Of a DNA stretch of 64,000 nt, positions 3,642-62,979 are shown in pieces (position 1 is the stretch's first letter; each line of letters opens with the position of its first letter). Source of the stretch: a virus (lineage: Duplodnaviria > Caudoviricetes); IMG/VR virus record IMGVR_UViG_3300020112_001004, positions 32,001 through 96,000 of that record, one strand, 5' to 3'. The translations under genes were made by a program, and so were the position numbers. A model generated the notes under the pieces. It made no database searches. It saw only the letters and a program-made list of their open reading frames with translations, and was not told the DNA's origin.

Positions 3642-5888
3642 ATGGGATATGAAGACAGAAAGTATACAGGGAAGAGTGCCACTTTGAAGGTGAATTTTTG
3701 TAGAAAACTTTATAATAATGGCAACTATTATGTAGCAAGTTTTTTTATTTTGGAGCTCCAACATGGGGAACTCTCTCTGCCATATGGCGAAGAAAATCTA
3801 GTAGCTAATGGGAAAATTACCTGCGATTTAGACAAGGATTATGAGTACATTCTAACAGTAAAAGAATATGAAGACCCAAAATATTCAACAAGTCACGAGA
3901 TTTGTAGTATAGTTCCAATAATTAAAGTAGATTCACTAGATGAACAGATTATCTTTTTAAGAAAAATACTAACCCAGACACAATTTAGTAATTACTATGA
4001 TGTATTTGGAGGTAGCGAGGATTTACTTAAACCCCTAAAAAAAGGCGATACGAAATCATTATTAAAGATAAAAGGAATAGGTCTGAATACAGTAGATAAA
4101 CTATTAAATAAATATGAGAATAATATAGCAAATGCTAATATTATTATTAAAATTGCTAAATATGGGCTAAGTGACTCAGAAATTTGTCTGATGATTAAAA
4201 GTGGATTCAATGAGACCGAAATAGTAAAAACAATGGAGCGTAATCCATATGAATTCATCTCAAAAGTTAAAGGGTTGGGGTTCAAAAAGATAGATGCTAT
4301 AGCCTTAAAAAATGGAATAAAAGAAGAAGATTTAAGGAGAATCAAAGGATTCATAACCTATGCGATAAATAAAAGAGTAGAGAATGGTAGTACTAAAATT
4401 GGTTTAGACGAACTCGAGCAAGAGTTGGATAATGAATTTGGTGTGGATTTTAATATTGATTTAGCTATTGAAGCTTTAAAAGATATGGAACAAAATGAGG
4501 ACTTATGGGTTAGTGCTGATAGAAGCGACATCACTACAACAGCTATTAGAGAAAGTGAAAGATATGTTGCTAAAAGATTAATTGATATTATGAGAGACGA
4601 AACTAAATTAGATTATGATTTGGGAAAGATAAAAGTAGCAGAGAAGAGTCAAGGCTTTGAATATTCAGAAGAACAAAGAGGGGCTATTAAACAGCTACTA
4701 GAGAACAAAATAAGCGTATTAACAGCCCTAGGGGGTTCTGGTAAAACAGCCGTAGTAAGAGGAGCGTTAGCTTGTCTTAAAGAAGGCTATGATATAAGGC
4801 TTATGGCTTTATCGGGAAAAGCTTCGTCAGTATTAGCAAATGCTTCTGGATTAGAAGCTAGTACAATTCACAAGTTTTTAATTGATAAAGTAAGAGAAAA
4901 TATTGTACCAGACGTTGTAGTTATAGATGAATGCTCGATGCCAGATATAGGTCTTACTTACAAGTTGTTACAACTCCTACCTAACACTGTGAAAATAATA
5001 TTTATTGGTGACCCAAACCAACTACCAGCAATAGGTGCCGGAAATCTATTGTTTGATATGTTAGAGAGTGGTGTTATTCCAACGATTAGATTAACAAGAA
5101 TTTATAGACAAGGATTAAGGTCTGGCATAGTGACAGAATCTAGAAAGATAACAGAAGATAAAAATATATTGGAAGACGGGTATGGCGTAACTGTAAAAGG
5201 TGAAGATAAGGATTTTATAATGGATATTTATAAAGAAAAAGAAGATAGTTTGGATAAGGTTATGGACTACTATAAGAAATTATTAAAAAAATATAAACCT
5301 AAAGATATAGTAGTGTTATCTTGTGTAAAAACAAGAGGCGAGGCTTGTACCTATAATATAAATAATAAAATCCAAGAGATATTGTTTAAACCAAATGAGA
5401 GACATATAGTTGTGGGCAAGAAGGATAGAGAGTTTAAAATTCATGTAAAAGATATAGTTATCAATGGGAAAAATAATCCTAAATGTGTTTGTGACGAAGG
5501 AACAGTTGGTATTTATAATGGAGAGGTTGGGACGGTAATTTCCATAGACGAAACAGAAAAGACTATTTGTGTTAATTTTGGTAAGGGAAGAGAATGTGTT
5601 TATATAAATCAAGAACAAATGGCTCATATAGAACTAGGGTATTCTTACACAATACATCGTAGCCAAGGAATAACAATCCCTGCTACCATAATGGTTTTAG
5701 ATAATACTATGATAATGATGGCGAATAAAAATTTAATATATACTGGTATAACTAGAGCAAAAGATATTTGTTATTTAGTAGGACAAAAAACAACATTGCA
5801 AAAAGGGTTAAGAACAAGTGGAATTGCAAAAAGAAAAACTTTCTTGAAAGAGTTTTTAGAGGAATACGGAACTAAATTAGAGGGTTAA
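3642..5888 (+). CDS. recD2: RecD2-like SF1B helicase
   Basis: Walker A ALGGSGKT, STIHK, VIDECSM, GDPNQLPAIGAG, IYRQ, TIHRSQG, YTGITRAK; N-terminal HhH (IKGIG). Confidence 0.9.
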   Translation: MGYEDRKYTGKSATLKVNFCRKLYNNGNYYVASFFILELQHGELSLPYGEENLVANGKITCDLDKDYEYILTVKEYEDPKYSTSHEICSIVPIIKVDSLDEQIIFLRKILTQTQFSNYYDVFGGSEDLLKPLKKGDTKSLLKIKGIGLNTVDKLLNKYENNIANANIIIKIAKYGLSDSEICLMIKSGFNETEIVKTMERNPYEFISKVKGLGFKKIDAIALKNGIKEEDLRRIKGFITYAINKRVENGSTKIGLDELEQELDNEFGVDFNIDLAIEALKDMEQNEDLWVSADRSDITTTAIRESERYVAKRLIDIMRDETKLDYDLGKIKVAEKSQGFEYSEEQRGAIKQLLENKISVLTALGGSGKTAVVRGALACLKEGYDIRLMALSGKASSVLANASGLEASTIHKFLIDKVRENIVPDVVVIDECSMPDIGLTYKLLQLLPNTVKIIFIGDPNQLPAIGAGNLLFDMLESGVIPTIRLTRIYRQGLRSGIVTESRKITEDKNILEDGYGVTVKGEDKDFIMDIYKEKEDSLDKVMDYYKKLLKKYKPKDIVVLSCVKTRGEACTYNINNKIQEILFKPNERHIVVGKKDREFKIHVKDIVINGKNNPKCVCDEGTVGIYNGEVGTVISIDETEKTICVNFGKGRECVYINQEQMAHIELGYSYTIHRSQGITIPATIMVLDNTMIMMANKNLIYTGITRAKDICYLVGQKTTLQKGLRTSGIAKRKTFLKEFLEEYGTKLEG

Positions 5889-34439: not shown

Positions 34440-34715
34440 TTATAATCCTATTCTTCCCTCAACTACTACGCCTTGAGTTAAGAATTTTAATTCTGTGATT
34501 GCTGGACTGTCGAAGTCTAAACATAAATCAAAGTCTGAACTCATCCAACCAGTTAAACCATTTTCAATGTATTCACAATCTTCAGAAACGTGTAAAGTTA
34601 GTTTAATTATTTTTATATTGCTCCAAGTTGGTAATTGTTCTTTTAACATTGCTATTACGTCATATCCCTCGGCTGGAACTGTAAATTTAACATTTAATTC
34701 TTTAGTTGTTTTCAT
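34440..34715 (-). CDS. Hypothetical protein
   Basis: AAGGAG RBS, 91 aa. Confidence 0.6.
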   Translation of the reverse strand: MKTTKELNVKFTVPAEGYDVIAMLKEQLPTWSNIKIIKLTLHVSEDCEYIENGLTGWMSSDFDLCLDFDSPAITELKFLTQGVVVEGRIGL

Positions 34716-35410
34716 TTTATTATCTCCTTTTCGTTTAATATATATAAATTATTTTTTTGTACCAAACCATTATTATCAAATAAATAGTTCAGCACATTTT
34801 CCTTATTAATAGAAAACCCTTGTTCTTTTAAATCTTCAGCCACATAGGATAAATATCCTGTTACAATAGCACAAGCCATAGAGGTGCCTGTTCTAACCAA
34901 GCTCTCTTGTGCTAAAGTTATACATGATTGTTTCTCTCCAAAAGTGTAGATATCAGCGCTATTGGAAAAAGTGGATTTATTATAATTATCACTTACACTA
35001 CCAACACTTAGAGTAGATTCGTAAAACGCTGGGTAGTATTTAGATTTATCATAATTATTACCAGAGGCGCAAATTAATAAAACTTTCCTTGATAACATAG
35101 TGCACATAGCCTCTAGCCTAGAATAGTTTTTAATAGTTCCCATAGAAAAATTAACTATGTCTAAATTGTCAAGTTCAGCCTTTCTAAATCCTCTTAGCAA
35201 GTCATCTATTGACCCACCTTTTTCTTGAAGAACCTTATAGACATAAAGTTCTACATTGGGATTAATATTATATATTTTAGTAGTTACCCATGTGCCATGC
35301 CCACTTTTATCTTTACTTGTTTCTTCTGTTAAATTTTTTCTTATTACATTATCTTCTGGTATAACCCTAAAATCCAACCCAGAGTCTAATACTCCTATTT
35401 TAACCTTCAT
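34712..35410 (-). CDS. S8 subtilisin-like serine protease (catalytic domain only)
   Basis: IGVLDSG, SGHGTWV, ASGN, YPA, TGTSMA triad; GGAGG RBS before ATG 35410. Confidence 0.9.
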   Translation of the reverse strand: MKVKIGVLDSGLDFRVIPEDNVIRKNLTEETSKDKSGHGTWVTTKIYNINPNVELYVYKVLQEKGGSIDDLLRGFRKAELDNLDIVNFSMGTIKNYSRLEAMCTMLSRKVLLICASGNNYDKSKYYPAFYESTLSVGSVSDNYNKSTFSNSADIYTFGEKQSCITLAQESLVRTGTSMACAIVTGYLSYVAEDLKEQGFSINKENVLNYLFDNNGLVQKNNLYILNEKEIIK

Positions 35411-35472
35411 CATCCACCTCCCATATATTGAAGGATTACCTGCCAAGCAATCTTGGTGGGTTCCTTCAAGTT

Positions 35473-42032: not shown

Positions 42033-45000
42033 CTATTTTTTCTTCCCTAACCTTCTTAATTCTCTTGATTGTTTTTGCATTAATTTATCTATTGCTTTAT
42101 CTACATCAATTTCTTTCCTTATGTCTGCGTCCACGTTGTTGTTAATTGTTATTTTTGGTTCACTAGCTACTGGTTTTTGTGGATTTGGTACACTATTGAA
42201 CCTACTAGCTATTCCATTTATTACATTGTTTAATAAGGCATCAAAACTAGACATGTACTGACTATTCATGTTCTTATTGTCTAAAGCGGTTACATCAACG
42301 CCTCCATTAAAATCACTTAAAGACATAAATCCTTCTCCTAAAGGTTGTACCTCTGGCACTGAAGAAGGTGTATCTGTATCTACTCCAGTAGAATATTGAT
42401 TAGTCATTTGTTGCATTGTTTCTAAATGGTTTTTATAATCTTCTTCTCTTTGTTTGTAAATATCTTTAAGTTTTTTCGTATCTTCCTCTGCAACGGTAAG
42501 GTCTATATTGTTGGTTAGAATAGATTGTTGCTCTATTTCATTAACGGATTCAAGGCTACCACCCTTGATTGTGTTTACAACATTACTTACGACATTCTTT
42601 ACGGTGTTTATAGTATTGTTAACAAAGTTGGTTGTTACGGTAATCGTTTTACTAACAAGTCTACCTATTGCACTTCTTAGGTTTTCAACCATACCAGAAG
42701 CGCCTTGTGCTGCTCCCCCAACATTGTTAAAGTTAGACACAGAAGCTCCACCATTATAGTTAGGTACATTTTGTAAAACACCACCATAATTTTTAACTCT
42801 GCCTCCATTTGAATCGGCTGCTCCTCCAACATTATTAAACTGTCCTACAGAAGCTCCACCATTATAGTTAGGTGTATTTTGTAAAGTACCACCATAATTT
42901 TGAACCTTGCCTCCATTGGTATCGGCTGCATTACCAACATTATTTAACTGACTTTGAGATTGTGAACCATCATAGTTAGGAGTGCTTTGAAGGGTACTTC
43001 CATAATTTTGAACCTTGCCTCCATTGGTGTCGGCTGCGTTACCAACGTTGTCCATTTGACCTTGAGATTGTGAGCCATCATAATCTGGCACCCCTTCTAT
43101 TTTGTTTCCAAATTCGTCAACTTTAGGTGTGGCGTTACCAGCCGAGGTTCCCACATTATCCATTTGACTAGAAGTTTGAGAACCATCATAATCTGGTACC
43201 CCTTCTATTTTCTTACCAGTCTCATCTACTCTTTGTCCAGCTTCTTCTGAACTAGTTGCAACATTGTTAAAACCTTGTTCTGTAGGTGCGCCGTTATAAT
43301 CCGGTACGCCTTCTATTTTTTTACCAGCGTCTTCTACTTTTTGTCCACTTTGTTCAGCACTATCTCCAACCCCGTTGAATCCATTCATTATAGATTGAAC
43401 TACGTCTGCTGGTAATCCAAGACTATCCAGTTTAGCTTGAAGTTCGTCTTTAGAAACGCCACATTTAATAAATTCGTCGATAACTTGATTAATTTCATCA
43501 GTCATACCACTAGCAAAGTCTGGATTCGCTTTTAATTCGTTTAATTTATTTTGGAACTCTTCAGTGCTAATTTTACCCTCACCATAGGCTTGGATAAGTT
43601 GAGTCATTTGTGTTTTTGCAGACTCGGACAAGTTACTATTCATTACTAAACTGTTTAATTTATTTTGAAGTTCTTGAGTAGAAGTGTCACAGCTTTTCAT
43701 AGAATCATTAATTTGAGCCATTTCTAGGGCTATCTCTGGAGCAAGATTAGGGTTCATTTTAATAGCCATCAAAGCATCGTTTAAAACTTTAGCACTTGCC
43801 TCACCATTAACAAAAGCTTGTACCATATTTGATATTGACTCAGCAGATAGCGTACCTAATTGACTTATCGCCTCGTTGGATAATCCCATAGAATGTCCCA
43901 TAGACTCTCCAAATTGTTGGGCAGTTATCTCACCTTTTGCAAATTGTTGTATTGCTTTTGTCATAGTTTGTTGGACACCCTTGTCCAATGTGGTGAAACT
44001 TGCACTAGTTGTCATTTCCATCATTTTCATACCCATAGCGAACTCTTGTGCTGTTACATTACCTTGGGCGAACTGTTGAACTAGGGAATCTAAAGCTTTT
44101 TGGGAGTCTTTGGATAAGACATTGTAAAATGATTCCATATCATTCTCGACAAGTTTAACACCTTCGGCAAAATCTTTAGCTCCAACGTCTCCTCTTTGGA
44201 AACCTTCTAAAATAGCAGTCATGGCAGTTTGAGTGCTTTCTTTTAACTTACCCATGTTTTGGGCTGAGAAACTAGACATTGCAGAAACTGCTTCGCCATA
44301 GTCCTTTATGTTAACACTACCATCGGAATATCCTTTGTTTAATTTTTCTAGGCAACCACCGGCTGTTTGCTCTAACGAACCAAAGTCTAGTTTACTTACC
44401 TCGCAAAAGTCTTGGATAGCTCTTTTTCCTTCGTCGATATTTATTGCTCCACGCTCGAAGTCGTCAATCATCTTATTTATTGCTTTACTAGAAGCCTCTG
44501 GAATTTCGCCTAGTGCTTCAACTTCTTCTCTTAAAGCTTTTGCAGTTTTACCTCTATATATTTCTAGACCTTCATATCCTTTAATAACGTGGTCTGCACT
44601 ATCTCCAACTTCATAGTTAGCTTCGGCTAGTTGCTTTAATAGGTCGTATTCCTTCTGCTCTGAGACTGATAGTTTTTCATTATTATCCAACTTGGCTTGA
44701 TATGCTTGTAGAGATTGCTCTAAGTATGTCTTTTCATCTTCTGCGCTTTTCTTTACTGTTTCTTTTGTTTTTTCAAGTTCTTCTCTTAACTCTTTAGCAG
44801 ATTTAGTTTTTGCGTGGCTACCTTCACCATAAGCAACTTTTTCGTCATCTTCTAGTTGATAAAGTTGGTGTAAGGCACTATCTATATCTTTAATTTCTCC
44901 ATTATATTCAGACAGTTCTTTTGAAGCTTCATTAACATTCTTTTTGTTATCAGCAAAGAATTTATCTGCTTCTTTGGCTGCTAACCTTTTGTTATTTTGT

Positions 45001-48000
45001 TCAGCTTCTTGTTGGGCTTTTATATAATTTTTTAGAGCGTCTGTTAAATGATTGATAGCATTTTCTTCACTGCCATAAGCACTTACAAGCTCTGGCATAG
45101 ACTTAACTATATTAGATTTAGCATCGGCTAATATTTTTGAATTTTCTTCATATTCTTTTGAACTTTTTGAATTCGCAAGTTTTTGCTCTAACTCGTGGAT
45201 TTGAGCCAAACTTTCTTTAGCTGTCTTAACGTTATTAGCATTTTCTTTAGCAAGGTTACTATAGTTGTTCATGTTTTCTATAGTGTGTTTGTTGGTTTCC
45301 ATAAGTCTTTCGTCAGCTTTGGATATATAGTTATAAAGCTCATATAAACCAAAACCTACGGCTGCTATTGCTACTAGTAAACCACCAGCCATTAATGAAG
45401 AGGCTATAGTGGAAGCCTTAGTTAAAGTTTGTATCTCACCAGCTAAAGTGCCTAATATACCAACTCCAGAACTACATGCGTTTAAGAATGAGGATATTCC
45501 TTTTTCTGCTATACCAATTGCTGTTGAGGCTACTCCTATTCCTGCCCCAAAAGTTGTAAAGTCTATTAGTAGGTTTTTAGTACCGTCGGACATATTATTT
45601 AAATTGTTTACAAAATCTGTAGCACCTTGAGCGAATCCTCTAAGTTTTCCCTCTATTAATTCACCAAATGATTCACCTAGGGCACTAACAGCAGATTTTA
45701 AAATATCCATGTCTCCTTTTAAATTCAATGTGTTATCCTAAAAGCTTTTTATCTTTTAGTTCTAGGAGTTTCCTCCATTATACCACGTCGGTTCGTGGCT
45801 AGTTCAGCATATATCATCTTCCCTGTAGGGAAGCCGAACACTCGTGCAGATATTATATTCCTATTTAAATTAGGGTTCAATCTGTATGCGTTACGATGTT
45901 AAAAGATTTTAATCTTTTAATTATCTCGGTATTAACATATATTTTTTATATAAGTGTTACACTTTATAAAAAATACTTAGCCTTCACCGATATTGCTCGG
46001 TTATTCGATACACATTACTGTGTAAAGGGACAAATTTTATCCAACATAATATTTTGCATGTTCTGTGCTGCACCATTACAGTTTTCAATAGAACCTGTTA
46101 AACTACCAAATTCTTCGTCTGTTGCGTTCATAATCGCCAACAGACCTGCCATCAATTTTGTTACCGTAGAGGCTTTTTATCCTCTACCTCTAGGAGTTTC
46201 CTCCATTATACCACGTCAATTCGTGGCTAGTTCAGCATATATCATCACCTAGAATAAGGTGGTCGAGACTCGTGGGTGGATTATTGCTCCTAATTATCGC
46301 TCACCACCTATGCGTTACAAAAAAGGATTAGTATTCCTCTCTCTCGATGTTAGCATATATAATTATTTAAATAACTCTTTTAAAATTATACTTAGCCTTC
46401 TTCGATTTTCCCGACTTATTCAATATATATTTCTATATAAGGGGGCTGACATGTTAACCCGTTTTACCAGATATTGTTTCTGCATTCTGCATTTTCTGAC
46501 TAGCTGTTAGTTGACCAAAACCACTTCTAAGGTCTCCCAATATGTCACCAAGGTCTCTCATTGAGCCATCAGCGTTTTGCGTTTCTATTACTATGTCTGC
46601 CATGCCTTCTCTGGTTAAGTGTATAGGTTCTGACATTTCTGTGAATAAACGTCTTAAGGCTTGTCCTGCTGTTGTTGATTTTCGATTTTGTTATCGTTAA
46701 GCTTTTTATCTTAACCTCTAGGAGTTTCCCCCATTATGCCATGTTGTTTCATGGCTAGTCCAGCATATATCATCTTCCTTATAGGAAGGAAATCACTCGT
46801 GGAAGTATTTTTGCTCTCTTAACGCTCAACCTCTATGCGTTACGGTGGTAGGTGATGTTCCTACTTACCTCGGTGTTGCCATGTTCTATATTATATAAAA
46901 TTTAGGTTTTCACCGATTTTGATTTCTTTTTCTCATTGTATATTACTATACAAGGGGACTATTATGTTAATCCCAGCATTTGCCATTAGTCCTAATGCCA
47001 CGGACACATCCTCTATTGAAAAGCCCAGAGAACCTGCGACAGGGGCACACATTTGGAATGCGTACCCTAGTTGTTCTACTGAAGTATTACTATGTGTCGC
47101 TGTTGTTGCTAAAATATCGCAGAATTTTCCCGCATCTGAAGCCGAGTAGCCCATTGCGGTTATTGCGTCCAATAGTTATTAACTCTAGGCTCTTTATCCT
47201 AGACTCTGGAGGTTTCCCTCATTTTCATCGACTGGTTATCCAGTCCAGTTTAGACTATATCTTCACCCTTAACTTAATAATAGGGTGTCGGAGACTCGTG
47301 GAGGTATTTTTGCTCTCTTAACGCTCAACCTCTAGTCGTTACAGGGATTTATTGATTTTAAACCCCCTAGATGTTTACATATGGTTTTAGTATAGTTTCT
47401 ATATTATTAATATCCCAATGTGGTATTCTTATTAGTTTTATATTATTATCCAAACAGAATTGAGTTTTTATATTGTCTCTTCTTTTTGTATTTGCTAAAT
47501 TTTCCTCGGCTTCTTCTTGTGTTATTTCTCCTATAACCCAAGGTTCATAGTGCTGTCTACCATCAAATTCGACAAGTAGTTTTAAATTATTATCTTTATC
47601 AAACACTGCAAAATCAAAAGGCAATTCTTTTTTATCTCTGCACTCTTTTATTTTATATTGCTGTTTAAAATTAATATTATTTTCTTGTAAAAAGTTTAAA
47701 ATTTTTAATTCTCCAAAACTTATTTTCTTCGTACACACGTCGCACCTAACTTTGTTCTGAGATTTTACTGAGTCCCATGTGGTACAAAATTCATTACCAC
47801 ATTTACATTTAAACCTCATAAAAGTTTTAGCATTTACATATTCTGACGATAAACATGTTATATTTAAGTCTTTGCACTTCTCTCTAATCTCCTCTATGGT
47901 GAAAACACATCTATCTCTGGTTTTTCTTCCCTTACATTTTAAACAATTCCTTTGTCTACCATGTTTAACATCACTCCAAGTACGCTCGAAAATTTCCCCA

Positions 48001-49825
48001 CAATTACATTTAAACAACAATTTTTCTTTTTCGTTTTTATAAGTCTCAGATAAACATTCAATACCCCACTCTTGGCATTCTAACTTAACTCCTTCTATGG
48101 TGTAATGTTTTTTACCAGAGCATTCCGAACACTTAATCCTCCCATTTTTAACTTTATTCCATACTCTTTCAAACTGATTACCACATTTACACTTAAATTT
48201 TAGTTTGGTAAATCTGTCTATATATTTATCAGATAGACATTCTATTCCTAATTCTTTGCATTTTTCCTTTATTATTTCTATTGTTAATCTCACCTAATCA
48301 CTCCCTCCATAGCATAAAATTATAACTTAAAAACTATAAACCACTTAGTATTTCTTCTAATATTCCCCGATATTTTTTGAAAAGCATTACTGCTTAACCG
48401 ACCAACTGTTTAGTCACTATATCTGATGCGATACCTAGGTCTAAATTCCCAGCAGCTGCCAAAGCTACCACTGAATCAAGGGCTGCCAACTGTTTGGAAC
48501 TATCCCAACCAGCCATACCCATATAGTACAATGCCTCCAATGTTGTTACCCTATAGGCTTTTTGTCCTATAGCTCTTATAGTTTCCTATAAGTTCGGCAT
48601 ATATCATCTTCCCAGTGGGAAGTCGAGCACTCGTGGATTACTACTTGTTGGTAGTAAATAGTAAAACTATAACATTATATTCTTTTTATATTTAATATAA
48701 AAAGTTTCAGTTTCTATGCTCTACACTACTAAATACTTTTTAATTTATTTAGTTAGCTCGGTATCACCATATAATATTATATACACTAAAGTATAGATTA
48801 TTACTTAGGTTTCACCGATTTTGCTCGATTGTTCGATATACATTACTGTATAAAGGGGCAATTCTACCCGCTTGAGTTGCACTATATTTAGTTGATGCTC
48901 CAACTCTTTTAGCAGCCGATTCTAATAGTTGCATTTCTGAAGTTGTTGCTCCAGAAACAGCTTCTACCATGCTCATTTGAGCAGTAAATTCCATCATTTC
49001 GTTTACGGCATATCCAATACCAGCCATTCCAGCACCAAAAGCTGTTGTCATAGCAGTACCAAAAGCTATAGCATTATCTCCACTTGCCTTAAGTGACCTT
49101 GCCATATCTTCAACACTACCAGCTGCTGTTTTCGCCTCACTAGTTATGCCTCTAATTGCTGTTTGGGCTTCTCTTAAATTACCTGTTTGTATGTTATTAA
49201 TTTTATCTGTAAAACTAGTAATTTCGTTCGCAGAAAGCCCTTTTAGACTTGTTACATACTCGGTTGCTTGAGTTTTCATCTGGCTTAATTGTGTGCTATT
49301 TTTAGCTAATGCACTTTCATAAGCTCTTTCTTTTTGTTCTCTAGTATTAAGTAAATTGTTGAATTGAGTTACGCTTGAGTTTAATTTTCCTCTTTCAGCC
49401 AACTCAAATCCTACTGCATTTTGTTGTTTTGTTACAGTGTCTAAAGCACCTTGTAAGTTGGTTTTATATTCTCCTGTTGCACTTATTAAATTCTTTCTAA
49501 TTGCAAACTCTTCATTTTGTAGTTTATTTAATTGTGCATATAAAGATACAATTTCATTTAATCCAGCTTTACTACCAGAAATACCGTCAGTGTCTAATTT
49601 CGAGCTGGTCGGAGTATCTGTGTTTATCCCAACATTAACATTTGCTCCAGCATCTTGTAATTCCTTAATTTTAGCCAAGGCATCGTCAAGATTCCCCATG
49701 TCCACGTCTACTGCCACAGCTATGGTTTGACCATCAAAGTTTTTGATTAAAGCCTGTAACTGGTCAGCCACACCAGCGTCATTCAACTCTACGGACACTG
49801 TTACTTTTAAATCGCCACTTGCCAT
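42033..49825 (-). CDS. Tail tape measure protein (TP901 family), six exons: 49825-48866, 48537-48412, 47169-46970, 46682-46457, 46152-46039, 45725-42033; 1772 aa after splicing
   Basis: Junctions restore TP901-type motifs: SATQAG|EALYYMGMAGW, SDIVT|DAITAMG, NAG(I)|KSTTAGQAL, GKTG|MAGLLA, IMLD|NLKGD; exon sum 5319 nt. Confidence 0.92.
45726..46038 (-). ncRNA. Group I intron 5 of tape measure gene (313 nt, ORF-less)
   Basis: Exon ends GGAU pairing with GUCC IGS; P3 CCGAGC/GUUCGG; P7 GCAUA/UAUGC; terminal G. Confidence 0.9.
46153..46456 (-). ncRNA. Group I intron 4 of tape measure gene (304 nt)
   Basis: GGGU/GCCC P1, P7 GCAUA/UAUGC, ends AAAAUUG. Confidence 0.9.
46683..46969 (-). ncRNA. Group I intron 3 of tape measure gene (287 nt, phase 2)
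   Basis: GGGAU/GUCCC P1 places the site inside an Ile codon (AT|A), which restores the frame; P7 GCAUA/UAUGC; terminal G. Confidence 0.9.
47170..48411 (-). mobile_element. Group I intron 2 of tape measure gene (1242 nt) carrying a homing endonuclease gene
   Basis: GACU/GGUC P1, canonical P7 GACUA/UAGUC, terminal G, internal ORF 47367-48293. Confidence 0.9.
47367..48293 (-). CDS. Intron-encoded endonuclease: zinc-ribbon repeats + Vsr/PD-(D/E)XK-like domain
   Basis: Three FKC.CG..W...C..C repeats; LPFDFAV..VEFDGRQHY..D..K..IKLIRI; homologous to 2627-3559. Confidence 0.85.
   Translation of the reverse strand: MRLTIEIIKEKCKELGIECLSDKYIDRFTKLKFKCKCGNQFERVWNKVKNGRIKCSECSGKKHYTIEGVKLECQEWGIECLSETYKNEKEKLLFKCNCGEIFERTWSDVKHGRQRNCLKCKGRKTRDRCVFTIEEIREKCKDLNITCLSSEYVNAKTFMRFKCKCGNEFCTTWDSVKSQNKVRCDVCTKKISFGELKILNFLQENNINFKQQYKIKECRDKKELPFDFAVFDKDNNLKLLVEFDGRQHYEPWVIGEITQEEAEENLANTKRRDNIKTQFCLDNNIKLIRIPHWDINNIETILKPYVNI
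48538..48865 (-). ncRNA. Group I intron 1 of tape measure gene (328 nt)
   Basis: GGGU/GCCC P1, P3 UCGAGC/GCUCGA, P7 GCAUA/UAUGC, ends ACAUUG. Confidence 0.9.
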
Positions 49826-49872
49826 TTTATCCCTCCTTTTAATCTTAGGGCTAAGCCTTAACTAGCCTAACC

Positions 49873-50292
49873 CTAGCCAACTTCAAATCCAGCAGATTCC
49901 AATGCTTCCCTAACAATATCCACGTGCTTGGTTCCCATTTCATCTACTGTAGCAGATATAAAGTCTCTCGGAGGTACATTAATCCAATGATAACCAGTAG
50001 CATATAAGATTATATCGTCCAGTCTTCTTCCATTAAATCTACCCACTGTATTATTTACTAAATTCATTTCATACCCGTTTCCTCCTCCAGAAACAGATAC
50101 GTTAAAGTTACCCATATCTGAGAAACCACCACCGTCCATACGTCTACCATAATAGTCATTAACTGGAGTATATGCTCCATATACAGAAGAATGAACAGCT
50201 TTATTGTGTGCTTCTTTTAATGCTTTTTCCATATTACCTTGTGTAGAGTCTATTGTTTTTCTTATTTTATCTAAGATTTGTTCTATATCCAT
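49873..50292 (-). CDS. Tail-module protein
   Basis: Directly before TMP; VY..YTP..Y.R and PRDFI motifs. Confidence 0.55.
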   Translation of the reverse strand: MDIEQILDKIRKTIDSTQGNMEKALKEAHNKAVHSSVYGAYTPVNDYYGRRMDGGGFSDMGNFNVSVSGGGNGYEMNLVNNTVGRFNGRRLDDIILYATGYHWINVPPRDFISATVDEMGTKHVDIVREALESAGFEVG

Positions 50293-50942: not shown

Positions 50943-50973
50943 AAAAAATATCCCTTCCTTGTTTGAAATTTGG

Positions 50974-59991: not shown

Positions 59992-62979
59992 TTATATTCT
60001 AGAATTTCTAGTTGGAGCTCTAAATTGTAATAATTTAGATATATCTTTCTTTTTGTCTGGTTTGTTTCTAATTTGTCCTTGGCGTACATTTGCCAAGTAA
60101 AAACAAAGTAAAGCTAGTACAAAACAACGGTCATCGTGGTACTTACGTTTCTCTGGTGGATATTGGTAAGTATGACCTGTATTTGTTGGATTATCTACCC
60201 TTTGCATCATATAAGCTTCCTCTTTAGCTAAATCAATATTTTTTAATGCTAGTGCTTCTTCAAAAGCAAGGGTATGTTTATGGTAAACGACTTCTCCATC
60301 TTTCTCTTCTGGTATCATGATATAGTCTTTGGTTTCATCAAATTCACTAGTGAACTCAACTAATCCTAAATTTATCATTTCGATTGCTTTATCAAACATT
60401 TCTGTCCTATATTTTCTAGGGTCTACCACCCATAGTTTTTCTGATGCGTTCGGGAATCTATGAAGATATTCCTCACTATATTGAGGGTCTATTATTCCCT
60501 TATGTTTAATTCCGTTGGCGTCTTCCCAATCTTCCATAAAGTAATCTGGTATAATAGTTCCTCCACCACCTGCTCCAGCATCTACCATAAGAATTTCCAA
60601 ATTTTCATAGTCTGCATAACCTTCACCGTTGTAGTCTAGTATCATTTTTTTAATATATGCTGTTTGCTCTGGTGAACGCATTGGTGTTTTATTCTTCAAT
60701 CCTATATCTACTAAAGACACAAAGTTTTGTATTCTTAGTTTTGTGCCTAACACTTCGTCTTCTATTAATTCTGCTACTCCAACAATAGAGTTATCGTTTG
60801 TTCTAGCTGGGTCATATGCCATGATTATTCTTCTTTTCTCGTTGCCCTCATTGATTAACATTGGTGGTCTAATTGCGCTATTACGCATTATTACTGAACG
60901 CTTAAAAGGGTAATCATTACCACCTTCTGTAGTAAACTTGTTATAGTATTCTCGTCTCGCCTTTTCTGGGTTGGCTTTCATTGCATGGTCAACCTTATCT
61001 TGAGTAAGTAATGGCACTGCTAAATTTTTACCATGATTGGTCGCCCCTATAACCATATCACATGATATATCTGCGACAAAATAACTAGGGTTTCCCATTA
61101 GCATCTCTTTAGCACAGTTCTTATACATACTGAAAAAATGTGTATCGGTCGAAGAGGCTGAAGAACAATACAATATTTGGTTAGGTAACATTTTTGGAAT
61201 AGTTCCGTTGTCTATACCTTTACCCATTTTAAAACTGGCATTTTGAGTGCAAAACGCTTCAGTAACAAGGCAATATTCCTCGCTTAAAAACCCAGCCTCG
61301 TCGTAAACGTTTAGTTGAGAACGCTTCAATTTGTTATCTCACTAGCTTTTTATCTAGTGATTCTTATGATTGTATTTCTCATAAGTTCGGCATATCTTTT
61401 CACCTTTGGCATTATCCATTAAGGGACGGGGACTCGTGGGCGTGTTATATTCTATTAAATAGTTTCAACGCCTATGCTCTGCACGTGTTACTAATATTAC
61501 TTAATAACTTCCGTTCTGATTAGCATTTCAGCTTTCCAGATTTTTCCCCGTTTTAATTTAACTATACATTTCTGTATAGAGAGGCAATACGTTCTTCTAA
61601 ATTATATTCTTTATAGTAAAATAATTTTTTTTCATGTTTCCTGTCTAAATAAACTGAAGAATCTTTATAAATATATTCTAAAAACTCATGTGTGTTTTTT
61701 AATCCACCTATTCTTAGTCTATAATGATTTTTTTCTTGACATATATAAGATTTTATTCCTGCTTCGTACAAGATTTTTCTCAGTTGACCAACAAAATCTA
61801 TACTACCACAAGCAAAGTCAGCTTTTATGACATCTTGTGTGCAATTTTTAGACCTAGTTTTATCATGCGTTAAACATCCATCTCCATCAAAAAATCCTCT
61901 TATAAAATGTCTCATTAACTCTTTCGGAATGTTTGGTAAATCTATCACTTTAGATTTGTTTGGCATCACCCCTTGGTTTACTAGGTGTTCTACAAACTGC
62001 TTTTTATGAATTTTTAAACAACACGTTTCATAGTCTTTATTTGTTACTTCTAAATGTCTTACTCTTCTTGTAGTATTAAAATTCCCATGTATAGATTTAT
62101 TAAATTTTTTAAGATGATTTTCATCAACTGCTGATAGTTCGATGCCTAGAGTTCCACCTTTGCCAACCGAATATTCAACATATCCATCAGCATAAATAAA
62201 TCCTAGCCAATAAGCTTTCTCTTCATTGTTTATATTTTCAAAATAATCTAAATCACAGGTATATTTAGTGCTTTTAAGTCCAAGCTTGTTCGCCTTAGTA
62301 TCTATTGCACTTTTTGTCCTTCCAATTAATTCCCCTAATTGTTTATTTGTCATTTCACCATAATATTTTTTTAATATATTTATTTCTTCTTCAGTCCATT
62401 GTGTACGCATTAAAAATTTCCTCCTTTTGATTTAATCTAATTAATACGATATTTTTTAAAATAATCTTTACCTCTTAAATTCGTCTCGTCTCCGGAGCAA
62501 GTGGTAACACTACTACCATTAAACAATTTGAACGTAAACCCACTTGGGGCATGAATAAAACCATTCCCGTTTACTGATGGTTGTACCTGTTGAATCATAA
62601 AATCAGTCAAACCCACCATTGACTCTATTTGCCTTAAAGCCATCTTTTCCATCTTCAAAAATGTATCTTGTGATTGTTGTGCTGTAACAGAAAGAATATA
62701 AGAAGTAAAATTAGGGAACAGTAACATTTTAGTAAATGTAAAAGGTGCGATATAGAACGACTTACCCCCGTTTCTCGACATCGTTATACAACTAAATTGT
62801 TTATTCCAACTTTCAGCAAAACAATATCTTTGATAATCAAGGAATTCTATCCCTATTACTTCTTCGGCAAAAAGAACTGGGTTCTTTCTTCCCCACTGTA
62901 TTAAATTGCCATATTTATCGTAAGCTTCTTTTTTCTTTTGCGATAATTCTAAATCTGTTTTTCTAACATAAAAGTCCAT
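59992..62979 (-). CDS. terL: Terminase large subunit, two exons (62979-62470, 61326-59992), 614 aa
   Basis: SRNGGKS Walker A in exon 1; junction NLRG|KRSQLNVYDEAG restores Walker B context; YDPAR and HDDR nuclease motifs. Confidence 0.92.
61327..62469 (-). mobile_element. Group I intron in terL (1143 nt) with LAGLIDADG ORF in the P1 loop
   Basis: Exon AGAGGU pairs with GCCUCU near the ORF end; P7 GCAUA/UAUGC; terminal G. Confidence 0.9.
61562..62410 (-). CDS. LAGLIDADG homing endonuclease with N-terminal HTH
   Basis: AYWLGFIYADG and FIRGFFDGDG motifs; WTEEE..L..GRT N-domain. Confidence 0.9.
   Translation of the reverse strand: MRTQWTEEEINILKKYYGEMTNKQLGELIGRTKSAIDTKANKLGLKSTKYTCDLDYFENINNEEKAYWLGFIYADGYVEYSVGKGGTLGIELSAVDENHLKKFNKSIHGNFNTTRRVRHLEVTNKDYETCCLKIHKKQFVEHLVNQGVMPNKSKVIDLPNIPKELMRHFIRGFFDGDGCLTHDKTRSKNCTQDVIKADFACGSIDFVGQLRKILYEAGIKSYICQEKNHYRLRIGGLKNTHEFLEYIYKDSSVYLDRKHEKKLFYYKEYNLEERIASLYRNV

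Follow-up and report, generated by a model that had tools for sequence, protein, structure and literature searches.

A 64,000-nucleotide (nt) stretch of viral DNA (hereafter the window), part of a 112-kb IMG/VR virus record that CheckV estimates to be 76% complete, carries on its minus strand a run of fragmented open reading frames (ORFs) that we read, with high confidence, as one tail tape-measure protein (TMP) gene whose core (codons 320-542) is interrupted by five Twort-like group I introns of the IA type. This reading is supported by the continuity of the protein across the exon joints, by the structure and covariation of the inserted RNAs, by their homology to the introns of orf142 of phage Twort, and by purifying selection on the joined frame. 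Judged from its sequence, the gene appears to encode the TMP of a large SPbeta-like siphovirus.

Gene layout and protein continuity

Removal of five inserts (328, 1242, 287, 304, and 313 nt for introns 1 to 5; 2474 nt in sum) from the gene yields a 5319-nt frame of 1772 amino acids with a single terminal stop (Table 1). The ATG is preceded by a GGAGG ribosome-binding site. The internal exons measure 126, 200, 226, and 114 nt, together 666 nt, and the joints in the protein fall at 320|321, 362|363, 428/429, 504|505, and 542|543; exons 2 and 5, as well as exons 3 and 4 taken jointly, are in-frame units. A long ORF is found only in intron 2, while introns 1, 3, 4, and 5 (287 to 328 nt) carry no endonuclease gene. 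The initial annotation of this DNA had merged the fragments into one gene with these excisions, exon lengths, and four ORF-less introns, and all of these proposals were reproduced; the junction peptide that it predicted is present in the joined frame. The hairpin and ribosome-binding site directly upstream of the start codon also gave a sub-threshold match to the Rfam DUF2815 RNA (49823-49879, minus strand; 22.3 bits, E = 0.88).

Table 1. Exons, introns, and endonuclease ORF of the interrupted tape-measure gene. R1 is a covariance model of the 3' core of the introns; RF00028 is the Rfam group I model; ranges after PF10145 and phrog_1533 are profile positions.
Feature	Coordinates in window	Strand	Length and codons	Evidence
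Whole gene (pre-mRNA span), 6 exons and 5 introns	42033..49825	-		ATG at 49825
Exon 1	48866..49825	-	960 nt, codons 1-320	phrog_1533 106-296; gapless alignment to intact TMPs
Intron 1, ORF-less	48538..48865	-	328 nt	R1 106.8 bits; helices; RF00028 23.4 bits, sub-threshold
Exon 2	48412..48537	-	126 nt, codons 321-362	PF10145 20-62; phrog_1533 297-338
Intron 2	47170..48411	-	1242 nt	R1 143.3 bits; helices
Predicted endonuclease ORF in intron 2	47367..48293	-	308 amino acids	phrog_559, 2e-60
Exon 3	46970..47169	-	200 nt, codon 363 to first 2 nt of codon 429	PF10145 64-128; phrog_1533 339-404
Intron 3, ORF-less, phase 2	46683..46969	-	287 nt	R1 175.7 bits; RF00028 27.4 bits
Exon 4	46457..46682	-	226 nt, to codon 504	PF10145 131-201; phrog_1533 408-485
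Intron 4, ORF-less	46153..46456	-	304 nt	R1 188.1 bits; helices
Exon 5	46039..46152	-	114 nt, codons 505-542	phrog_1533 487-524
Intron 5, ORF-less	45726..46038	-	313 nt	R1 176.7 bits; helices
Exon 6	42033..45725	-	3693 nt, codons 543-1772 and stop	phrog_1533 525-1212

Each exon was scanned singly against Pfam and PHROGs. Every exon matched TMP PHROGs, and the single exons fell on successive positions of phrog_1533 and, for exons 2, 3, and 4, of PF10145 (PhageMin_Tail), with nothing duplicated or lost between them; exon 3 (60.6 bits) and exon 4 (38.8 bits) each exceeded the Pfam cutoff of 33.2 on their own. The joined protein was then compared with three uninterrupted TMPs, from Staphylococcus phage phi13, a Ruminococcus phage, and a Lachnospiraceae phage. 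It is 35 to 41% identical to them and aligns without a gap over residues 274 to 572, spanning all five joints, two of which sit within motifs that are identical in homologous intact TMPs. Thus, the alignment to intron-less homologs, which the initial annotation had named in advance as a test, is continuous across every joint. Because single exons match successive positions of a TMP profile and the joined protein is gapless against intact TMPs, a chance arrangement is excluded.

An exhaustive protein search with exon 3 matched 7059 cluster representatives, and for nearly all of the best 150 of these, its 66 residues were contained whole in one long protein. Together with the gapless alignment, this shows that exon and domain boundaries do not coincide and that the introns interrupt the protein where it is most conserved. 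All five are within or beside the PF10145 core, in agreement with their proposed clustering in a conserved domain. Exon 1, used as a query for related loci in viral contigs and for longer homologous proteins, gave no match in either search.

Structure and kinship of the inserted RNAs

The last base of the 5' exon is T at all five sites, the last base of each insert is G (omega-G), and in all five introns, P1 consists of 4 to 5 bp closing with a U.G pair. A check of each intron for helices found P1, P2 with a GNRA loop, P3, P4, P6, P7, P8, and P9 hairpins in every insert, and their order (P3 - P4 - P4' - P6 - P7 - P3' - P8 - P7') is that of the group I P3/P7 pseudoknot. The pairing of the exon U with a guide G, the terminal G, and the P3/P4/P7 pairings had all been described in the initial annotation, and each was found in five of five introns. 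Independently of this check, RNAalifold applied to the four ORF-less inserts, whose mean identity is 70% in the alignment, recovered P2, P3, P4, P5, P6, P8, and three P9 hairpins, with a compensatory change at 27 of 56 pairs. P7 reads GCAUA/UAUGC in introns 1, 3, 4, and 5 and GACUA/UAGUC in intron 2; 5/5 positions are paired in all, and intron 2 differs from the other four by two double compensatory changes. There is a covarying P7.1 along with the three P9 hairpins, and a clear P7.2 was seen in intron 1 alone; this intron also has an additional insertion of about 60 nt in the periphery, 3' of P7.1. The endonuclease ORF is placed in the P5 loop of intron 2, and its 3' end overlaps P4'.

In the ORF-less introns, a GGU or GAU located about 11 nt 5' of the terminal G mimics the end of the intron's own 5' exon. 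The mimic and the internal guide covary (two cases of C-G and two of U-A; columns 11-13 with 350-352 of alignment A1), and the mimic may possibly serve as an alternative partner for the guide in the 3' tail of the intron. We also considered an intein, a group II intron, an IStron, and separate gene fragments; these were ruled out, as the inserts have stops in the exon frame and a group I core and contain no reverse transcriptase or transposase genes.

The covariance model R1 was built from the five introns alone. Of the three introns in Twort orf142, it matched two (45.5 and 43.4 bits, E about 1e-8), and when introns 2 and 3 of orf142 were aligned directly with the inserts, both the P1-P4 region and the 3' tail proved clearly homologous. 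It further recognized the TMP-splitting insert of Staphylococcus phage 6ec (96.7 bits), in a match that runs exactly up to the downstream TMP coding sequence (CDS), and an intron in Clostridium phage CB452P1. Because tblastn of the joined TMP against the locus of this C. butyricum phage detected no TMP similarity, the CB452P1 intron lies in a different gene. More than 60 additional cores were matched on IMG/VR viral contigs retrieved by a short motif. Seven of these contigs (L021, L023, L026, L032, L049, L092, and L098) hold two to three cores within a few kilobases in other late genes, while an intron of the same family in a TMP gene (L074, IMGVR_UViG_3300045988_116340, 4933-5140, minus strand) ends about 5 codons downstream of site 1 and appears, from its position, to mark a further, separate insertion site within the TMP core. 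Across 70 distinct cores, 97.3% of the cells were paired, compared to 70.1% after shuffling and 29 to 48% with the partners slid, and changes on both sides occurred at 30 of 33 pairs, in an alignment that was fitted to the R1 model and therefore favors pairing. All 70 cores have G-C as their first P7 pair, which would fit the guanosine-binding pair.

Several results weigh against a group I assignment or against self-splicing of all five introns. The search with a group I model, which the initial annotation had put forward as a check, failed at threshold: RF00028 matched no intron at its gathering score (50 bits) and gave no match over the 5 kb at E <= 10. With introns scanned singly, only introns 3 and 1 produced matches, both sub-threshold (27.4 and 23.4 bits), and introns 4 and 5 produced nothing. 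No clear P10 pairing was identified in the five introns. Last, in a recent survey of phages (PMC11878797), half of the validated introns were spliced only in infected cells. As a control, RF00028 scored the three Twort orf142 introns at 64 to 101 bits, and thus its failure here is not a general blindness to phage introns. In the sub-threshold alignment of intron 3, P1, P2, P3, P4, P5, P8, and J8/7 agree with the structure drawn by hand. The inserts are thus divergent group I members, AT-rich (30 to 36% GC) and with long P5 and P7.1 insertions. By analogy, they are best placed in a Twort-like lineage of the IA type; the narrower assignment to subgroup IA2 rests on likeness to the Twort introns.

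On this structure, each intron would fold into a P3-P8 / P4-P6 / P7 core, the last 4 to 5 exon bases would pair with the internal guide with the U.G pair at the cleavage site, and the intron would be excised by two guanosine-dependent transesterifications, ending at the terminal G. As only the mRNA spliced five times would encode the 1772-residue protein, tail assembly would depend on all five events. Because half of the surveyed introns needed infected cells, self-splicing of all five is not assured, and it is possible, though we consider it the less probable course, that at least one of these genuine group I introns needs a phage or host protein or in vivo conditions, so that a helper would gate TMP output. 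The Bastillevirinae data (splicing of 4 of 8 validated introns was confined to infected bacteria; PMC11878797), the AT-rich sequence, the short P1, and the weak RF00028 match point in this direction. In contrast, the cores are complete and conserved far beyond synonymous sites, and the related Twort introns self-splice in vitro (Landthaler and Shub 1999).

Close relatives, selection, and intron mobility

With a 99% identical endonuclease fragment, we found two close relatives of the window, Logan contigs L127 and L128, both about 96% identical to it. They are independent assemblies from different runs and have the same order of exons and introns, with exon lengths identical to the base. All exons are present without any indel, the introns occupy identical positions, and the ends of the cores coincide with exon starts. 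In addition, exon 3 of both relatives is split into 123 and 77 nt by a sixth intron (L127 11248-12319, 1072 nt) that is likewise a member of this RNA family; its endonuclease gene, of the zinc-ribbon/Vsr-like type seen in intron 2, is frameshifted. The window has the precise empty site (47047|47046, codons 403|404), and this exact presence/absence pair is the signature of a mobile intron. An assembly artifact, in which repeated intron-like sequence gave rise to a chimeric metagenome assembly, could be suspected from the resemblance of the five inserts (60 to 78% pairwise identity, exact runs up to 31 nt); its probability is negligible given the two independent assemblies and the colinearity of the joined exons with intact TMPs.

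The seven-exon join of the relatives is open over all 1351 codons on the contig and shows 93.9% protein identity to the window. Between the window and a relative, the proportions of synonymous and nonsynonymous differences in the joined frame (pS and pN) are 0.21 and 0.033, and the ratio of nonsynonymous to synonymous divergence (dN/dS) is 0.13 overall and 0.10 for codons 250-600. Thus, a frame that exists only after splicing is under purifying selection. The introns are conserved as well: introns 1 to 4 diverge by 3.4, 0.8, 1.7, and 1.6%, compared to 2.6 to 11.1% for the exons. In intron 3, changes at positions 108 and 120 convert an A-U pair of P6 to G-C, and two further helix changes lead to wobble or improved pairs. 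These data bear on the view that the phage is defective and the gene a pseudogene in decay, its inserts being remnants of dead introns, or repeats of another kind, that are no longer excised. Although the sub-threshold Rfam match would agree with such decay, this view is very improbable in light of the low dN/dS at this synonymous divergence, exons free of stops and frameshifts in three independent assemblies, helix substitutions that are compensatory or wobble, and an intact adjoining structural module.

The intron-2 ORF is intact in the window, and 149 homologs cover 90 to 100% of its length, many with DUF2726, DUF4379, or zinc-ribbon families and some named Vsr endonucleases. An AlphaFold (AF2) model with a predicted local distance difference test (pLDDT) score of 93 consists of three small zinc-ribbon repeats and a C-terminal alpha/beta domain. 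Among its best Foldseek matches, with probabilities of 0.99 to 1.0, are Vsr (1vsr, 1cw0) and the catalytic domain of I-Bth0305I (3r3p); the template modeling (TM) scores normalized to the target are 0.49 to 0.59, but the E-values of 0.03 to 0.05 are weak because the model has several domains. The sequence itself gave only chance zinc-ribbon matches in the PDB. Residues D227, E242, D244, H248, and K276 are invariant or nearly so in 41 homologs. We thus predict a homing endonuclease that combines zinc ribbons with a Vsr/EDxHD-like domain, a likeness of fold and conserved residues; the PHROG label "HNH" is probably a misnomer. Endonucleases with CapR/DUF4379 repeats and an EDxHD/Vsr-like domain have recently been described in phage introns (PMC12350094). 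Similarly to that outgroup and to I-Bth0305I, the intron-2 protein has three zinc-ribbon repeats of about 60 residues followed by a Vsr-like domain of about 100 residues and is encoded in a phage intron; it differs in that it has no sequence-level match in the PDB, and the Foldseek E-values are weak. The enzyme probably drives the homing of its own intron.

Whether it might also mobilize the five-intron cluster en bloc, through co-conversion of the flanking exons and the neighboring introns, can be judged from the relatives. The initial annotation had raised this idea, and the distances would allow it: the neighboring introns are just 126 and 200 nt from the intron-2 site, and co-conversion tracts of this size are known for phage homing. 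However, intron 2 differs from its L127 counterpart at just 10 of 1242 nt, none of them in the ribozyme. Divergence is higher in the adjoining exons, at 4.0% in exon 2 and 9.8% in exon 3a, and it sets in 26 nt upstream and 12 nt downstream of the intron. Because an intron diverged by 0.8% sits between exons diverged by 4 to 10%, it must have been shared between the lineages after the exons had diverged, and since the flanks diverge from so close to its ends, the latest exchange dragged along almost no flank. Moreover, the endonuclease is broken in both relatives (L127 10001-10927) by one G-to-A change that introduces a stop at W173, leaving 172 and 123 amino acids; this dead ORF differs from the window ORF at 9 of 927 nt. 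The relatives nevertheless retain all introns, and the sixth has a decayed endonuclease gene of its own. Movement of the whole cluster by this enzyme is therefore not supported by the divergence data, and we regard it as improbable.

The introns within the gene share sequence in patches. Introns 2 and 3 (47170-47342 and 46683-46843) have an exact 31-nt run over P7.1, a helix that varies freely across the wider intron family, and introns 4 and 5 (46153-46456 and 45726-46038) have an exact 29-nt run in P9/P9.1, although the cores as a whole are just 64 to 78% identical. This pattern suggests that the introns are mosaics produced by exchange within the gene, and the four ORF-less introns appear to be related ribozymes whose P1 has been adapted to different sites. 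An origin of all five as paralogs born inside the gene was not supported: in a tree of the cores, which is based on 145 columns, has low resolution, and carries no support values, introns 2 to 5 cluster with four introns from outside the gene among them, and intron 1 is placed elsewhere. One outside core (L055), at 84% identity, is nearer to intron 4 than any of its sister introns are. A speculative and rather unlikely extension is that, in this phage lineage, ORF-less introns lacking an endonuclease use the TMP core as ground on which to spread and recombine; possible routes include reverse splicing into GGRU-type sites and recombination in coinfected cells. It would fit the occupation of five to six sites, the mosaic introns, and the far younger age of the introns than of the exons between them. 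Because the reading frame would survive the loss of exon 2, of exon 5, or of exons 3+4 together, shorter tape-measure isoforms could also arise if near-identical ribozymes caused exons to be skipped.

Genomic surroundings and comparison with known systems

Genes in the neighborhood encode portal, virion, tube, and tail proteins. Identity of the portal to its counterparts in Brevibacillus phage Sundance and SPbeta-like Staphylococcus phages does not exceed 33%, and in the relatives, the neighboring genes carry the SPbeta families YonB, YomW, YomV, YomU (YomU_Tube), and YomN. In the relatives, an inserted IS605-type OrfB/TnpB gene of 385 amino acids (L127 6075-7232) separates the tube gene from the tail gene that follows it; this insertion is absent at the matching place in the window (about 50964-50972). 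Another intron of the R1 family (61327-62469, minus strand; R1 core 61327-61482, 76.6 bits) splits the gene immediately upstream of the portal and carries a LAGLIDADG_3 ORF (61562..62410). Its 5' splice site after 62470, read by eye, joins NLRG|KRSQ in frame. Neither of its flanking exons matched Pfam or PHROGs; the split gene is probably the large terminase, because the 3' exon begins just before a Walker-B-like VYDEAGF. Among the tail-fiber genes lies a subtilase-family ORF (34712-35446, minus strand; PF00082, 2e-22).

Group I introns have been known in TMP genes of Bacillus cereus-group prophages since 2008 (Tourasse and Kolsto 2008; PMC2504315). These introns (TMP-IVS1, IVS2, and IVS3a/b) occupy three sites with at most two introns per gene, are of the IA1/IA2 type, mostly ORF-less and Twort-like, and include related introns at different sites with an adapted P1. 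The gene described here resembles them in the host gene family and in the presence/absence variation between related phages; it differs in that a single gene holds five introns (six in close relatives), spaced by internal exons that total 666 nt. Twort orf142 (NC_007021) contains three self-splicing group I introns (Landthaler and Shub 1999; PMC22036). It shares with the present gene several introns in one late structural gene, short internal exons, and homologous RNAs, while the number of introns and the host gene are different and RF00028 scores at most 27 bits here compared to 64 to 101 in Twort. The insert in the TMP gene of phage 6ec (NC_024355) belongs to the same RNA family; in contrast to our five, it stands alone in its gene and occupies another site, at roughly codon 387 in the numbering of the window protein. 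The 6ec record annotates the TMP as separate CDSs with an "HNH endonuclease" and not as an intron. The Bastillevirinae have IA2/IA3-like introns, two or three of which occur together in some of their polymerase and terminase genes, and exon skipping is documented there (PMC11878797); unlike here, no TMP-gene intron was reported in that survey, and the maximum was three per gene.

In a literature of which our coverage is incomplete, we found no published report of more than three introns in one phage gene. The initial suggestion that five introns go beyond what is known therefore stands as far as this published maximum is concerned, but the close relatives already carry six. We conclude that the gene is an extreme example of a known phenomenon and not a new kind of element.

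The finding has a practical side, as gene callers and annotators fragment such genes, which happened both to the 6ec TMP and to the genes called on the relatives' contigs, and the R1 intron lineage, present in more than 100 viral contigs, is missed by the standard Rfam model. For the phage, an essential structural protein would depend on five ribozyme reactions per transcript, six in the relatives, around internal exons of 77 to 226 nt. Such a gene would offer a natural system for the order of splicing, for exon skipping, and for the cost of intron load in phages, and its near-identical relatives provide a dated snapshot of intron gain or loss and of endonuclease decay.

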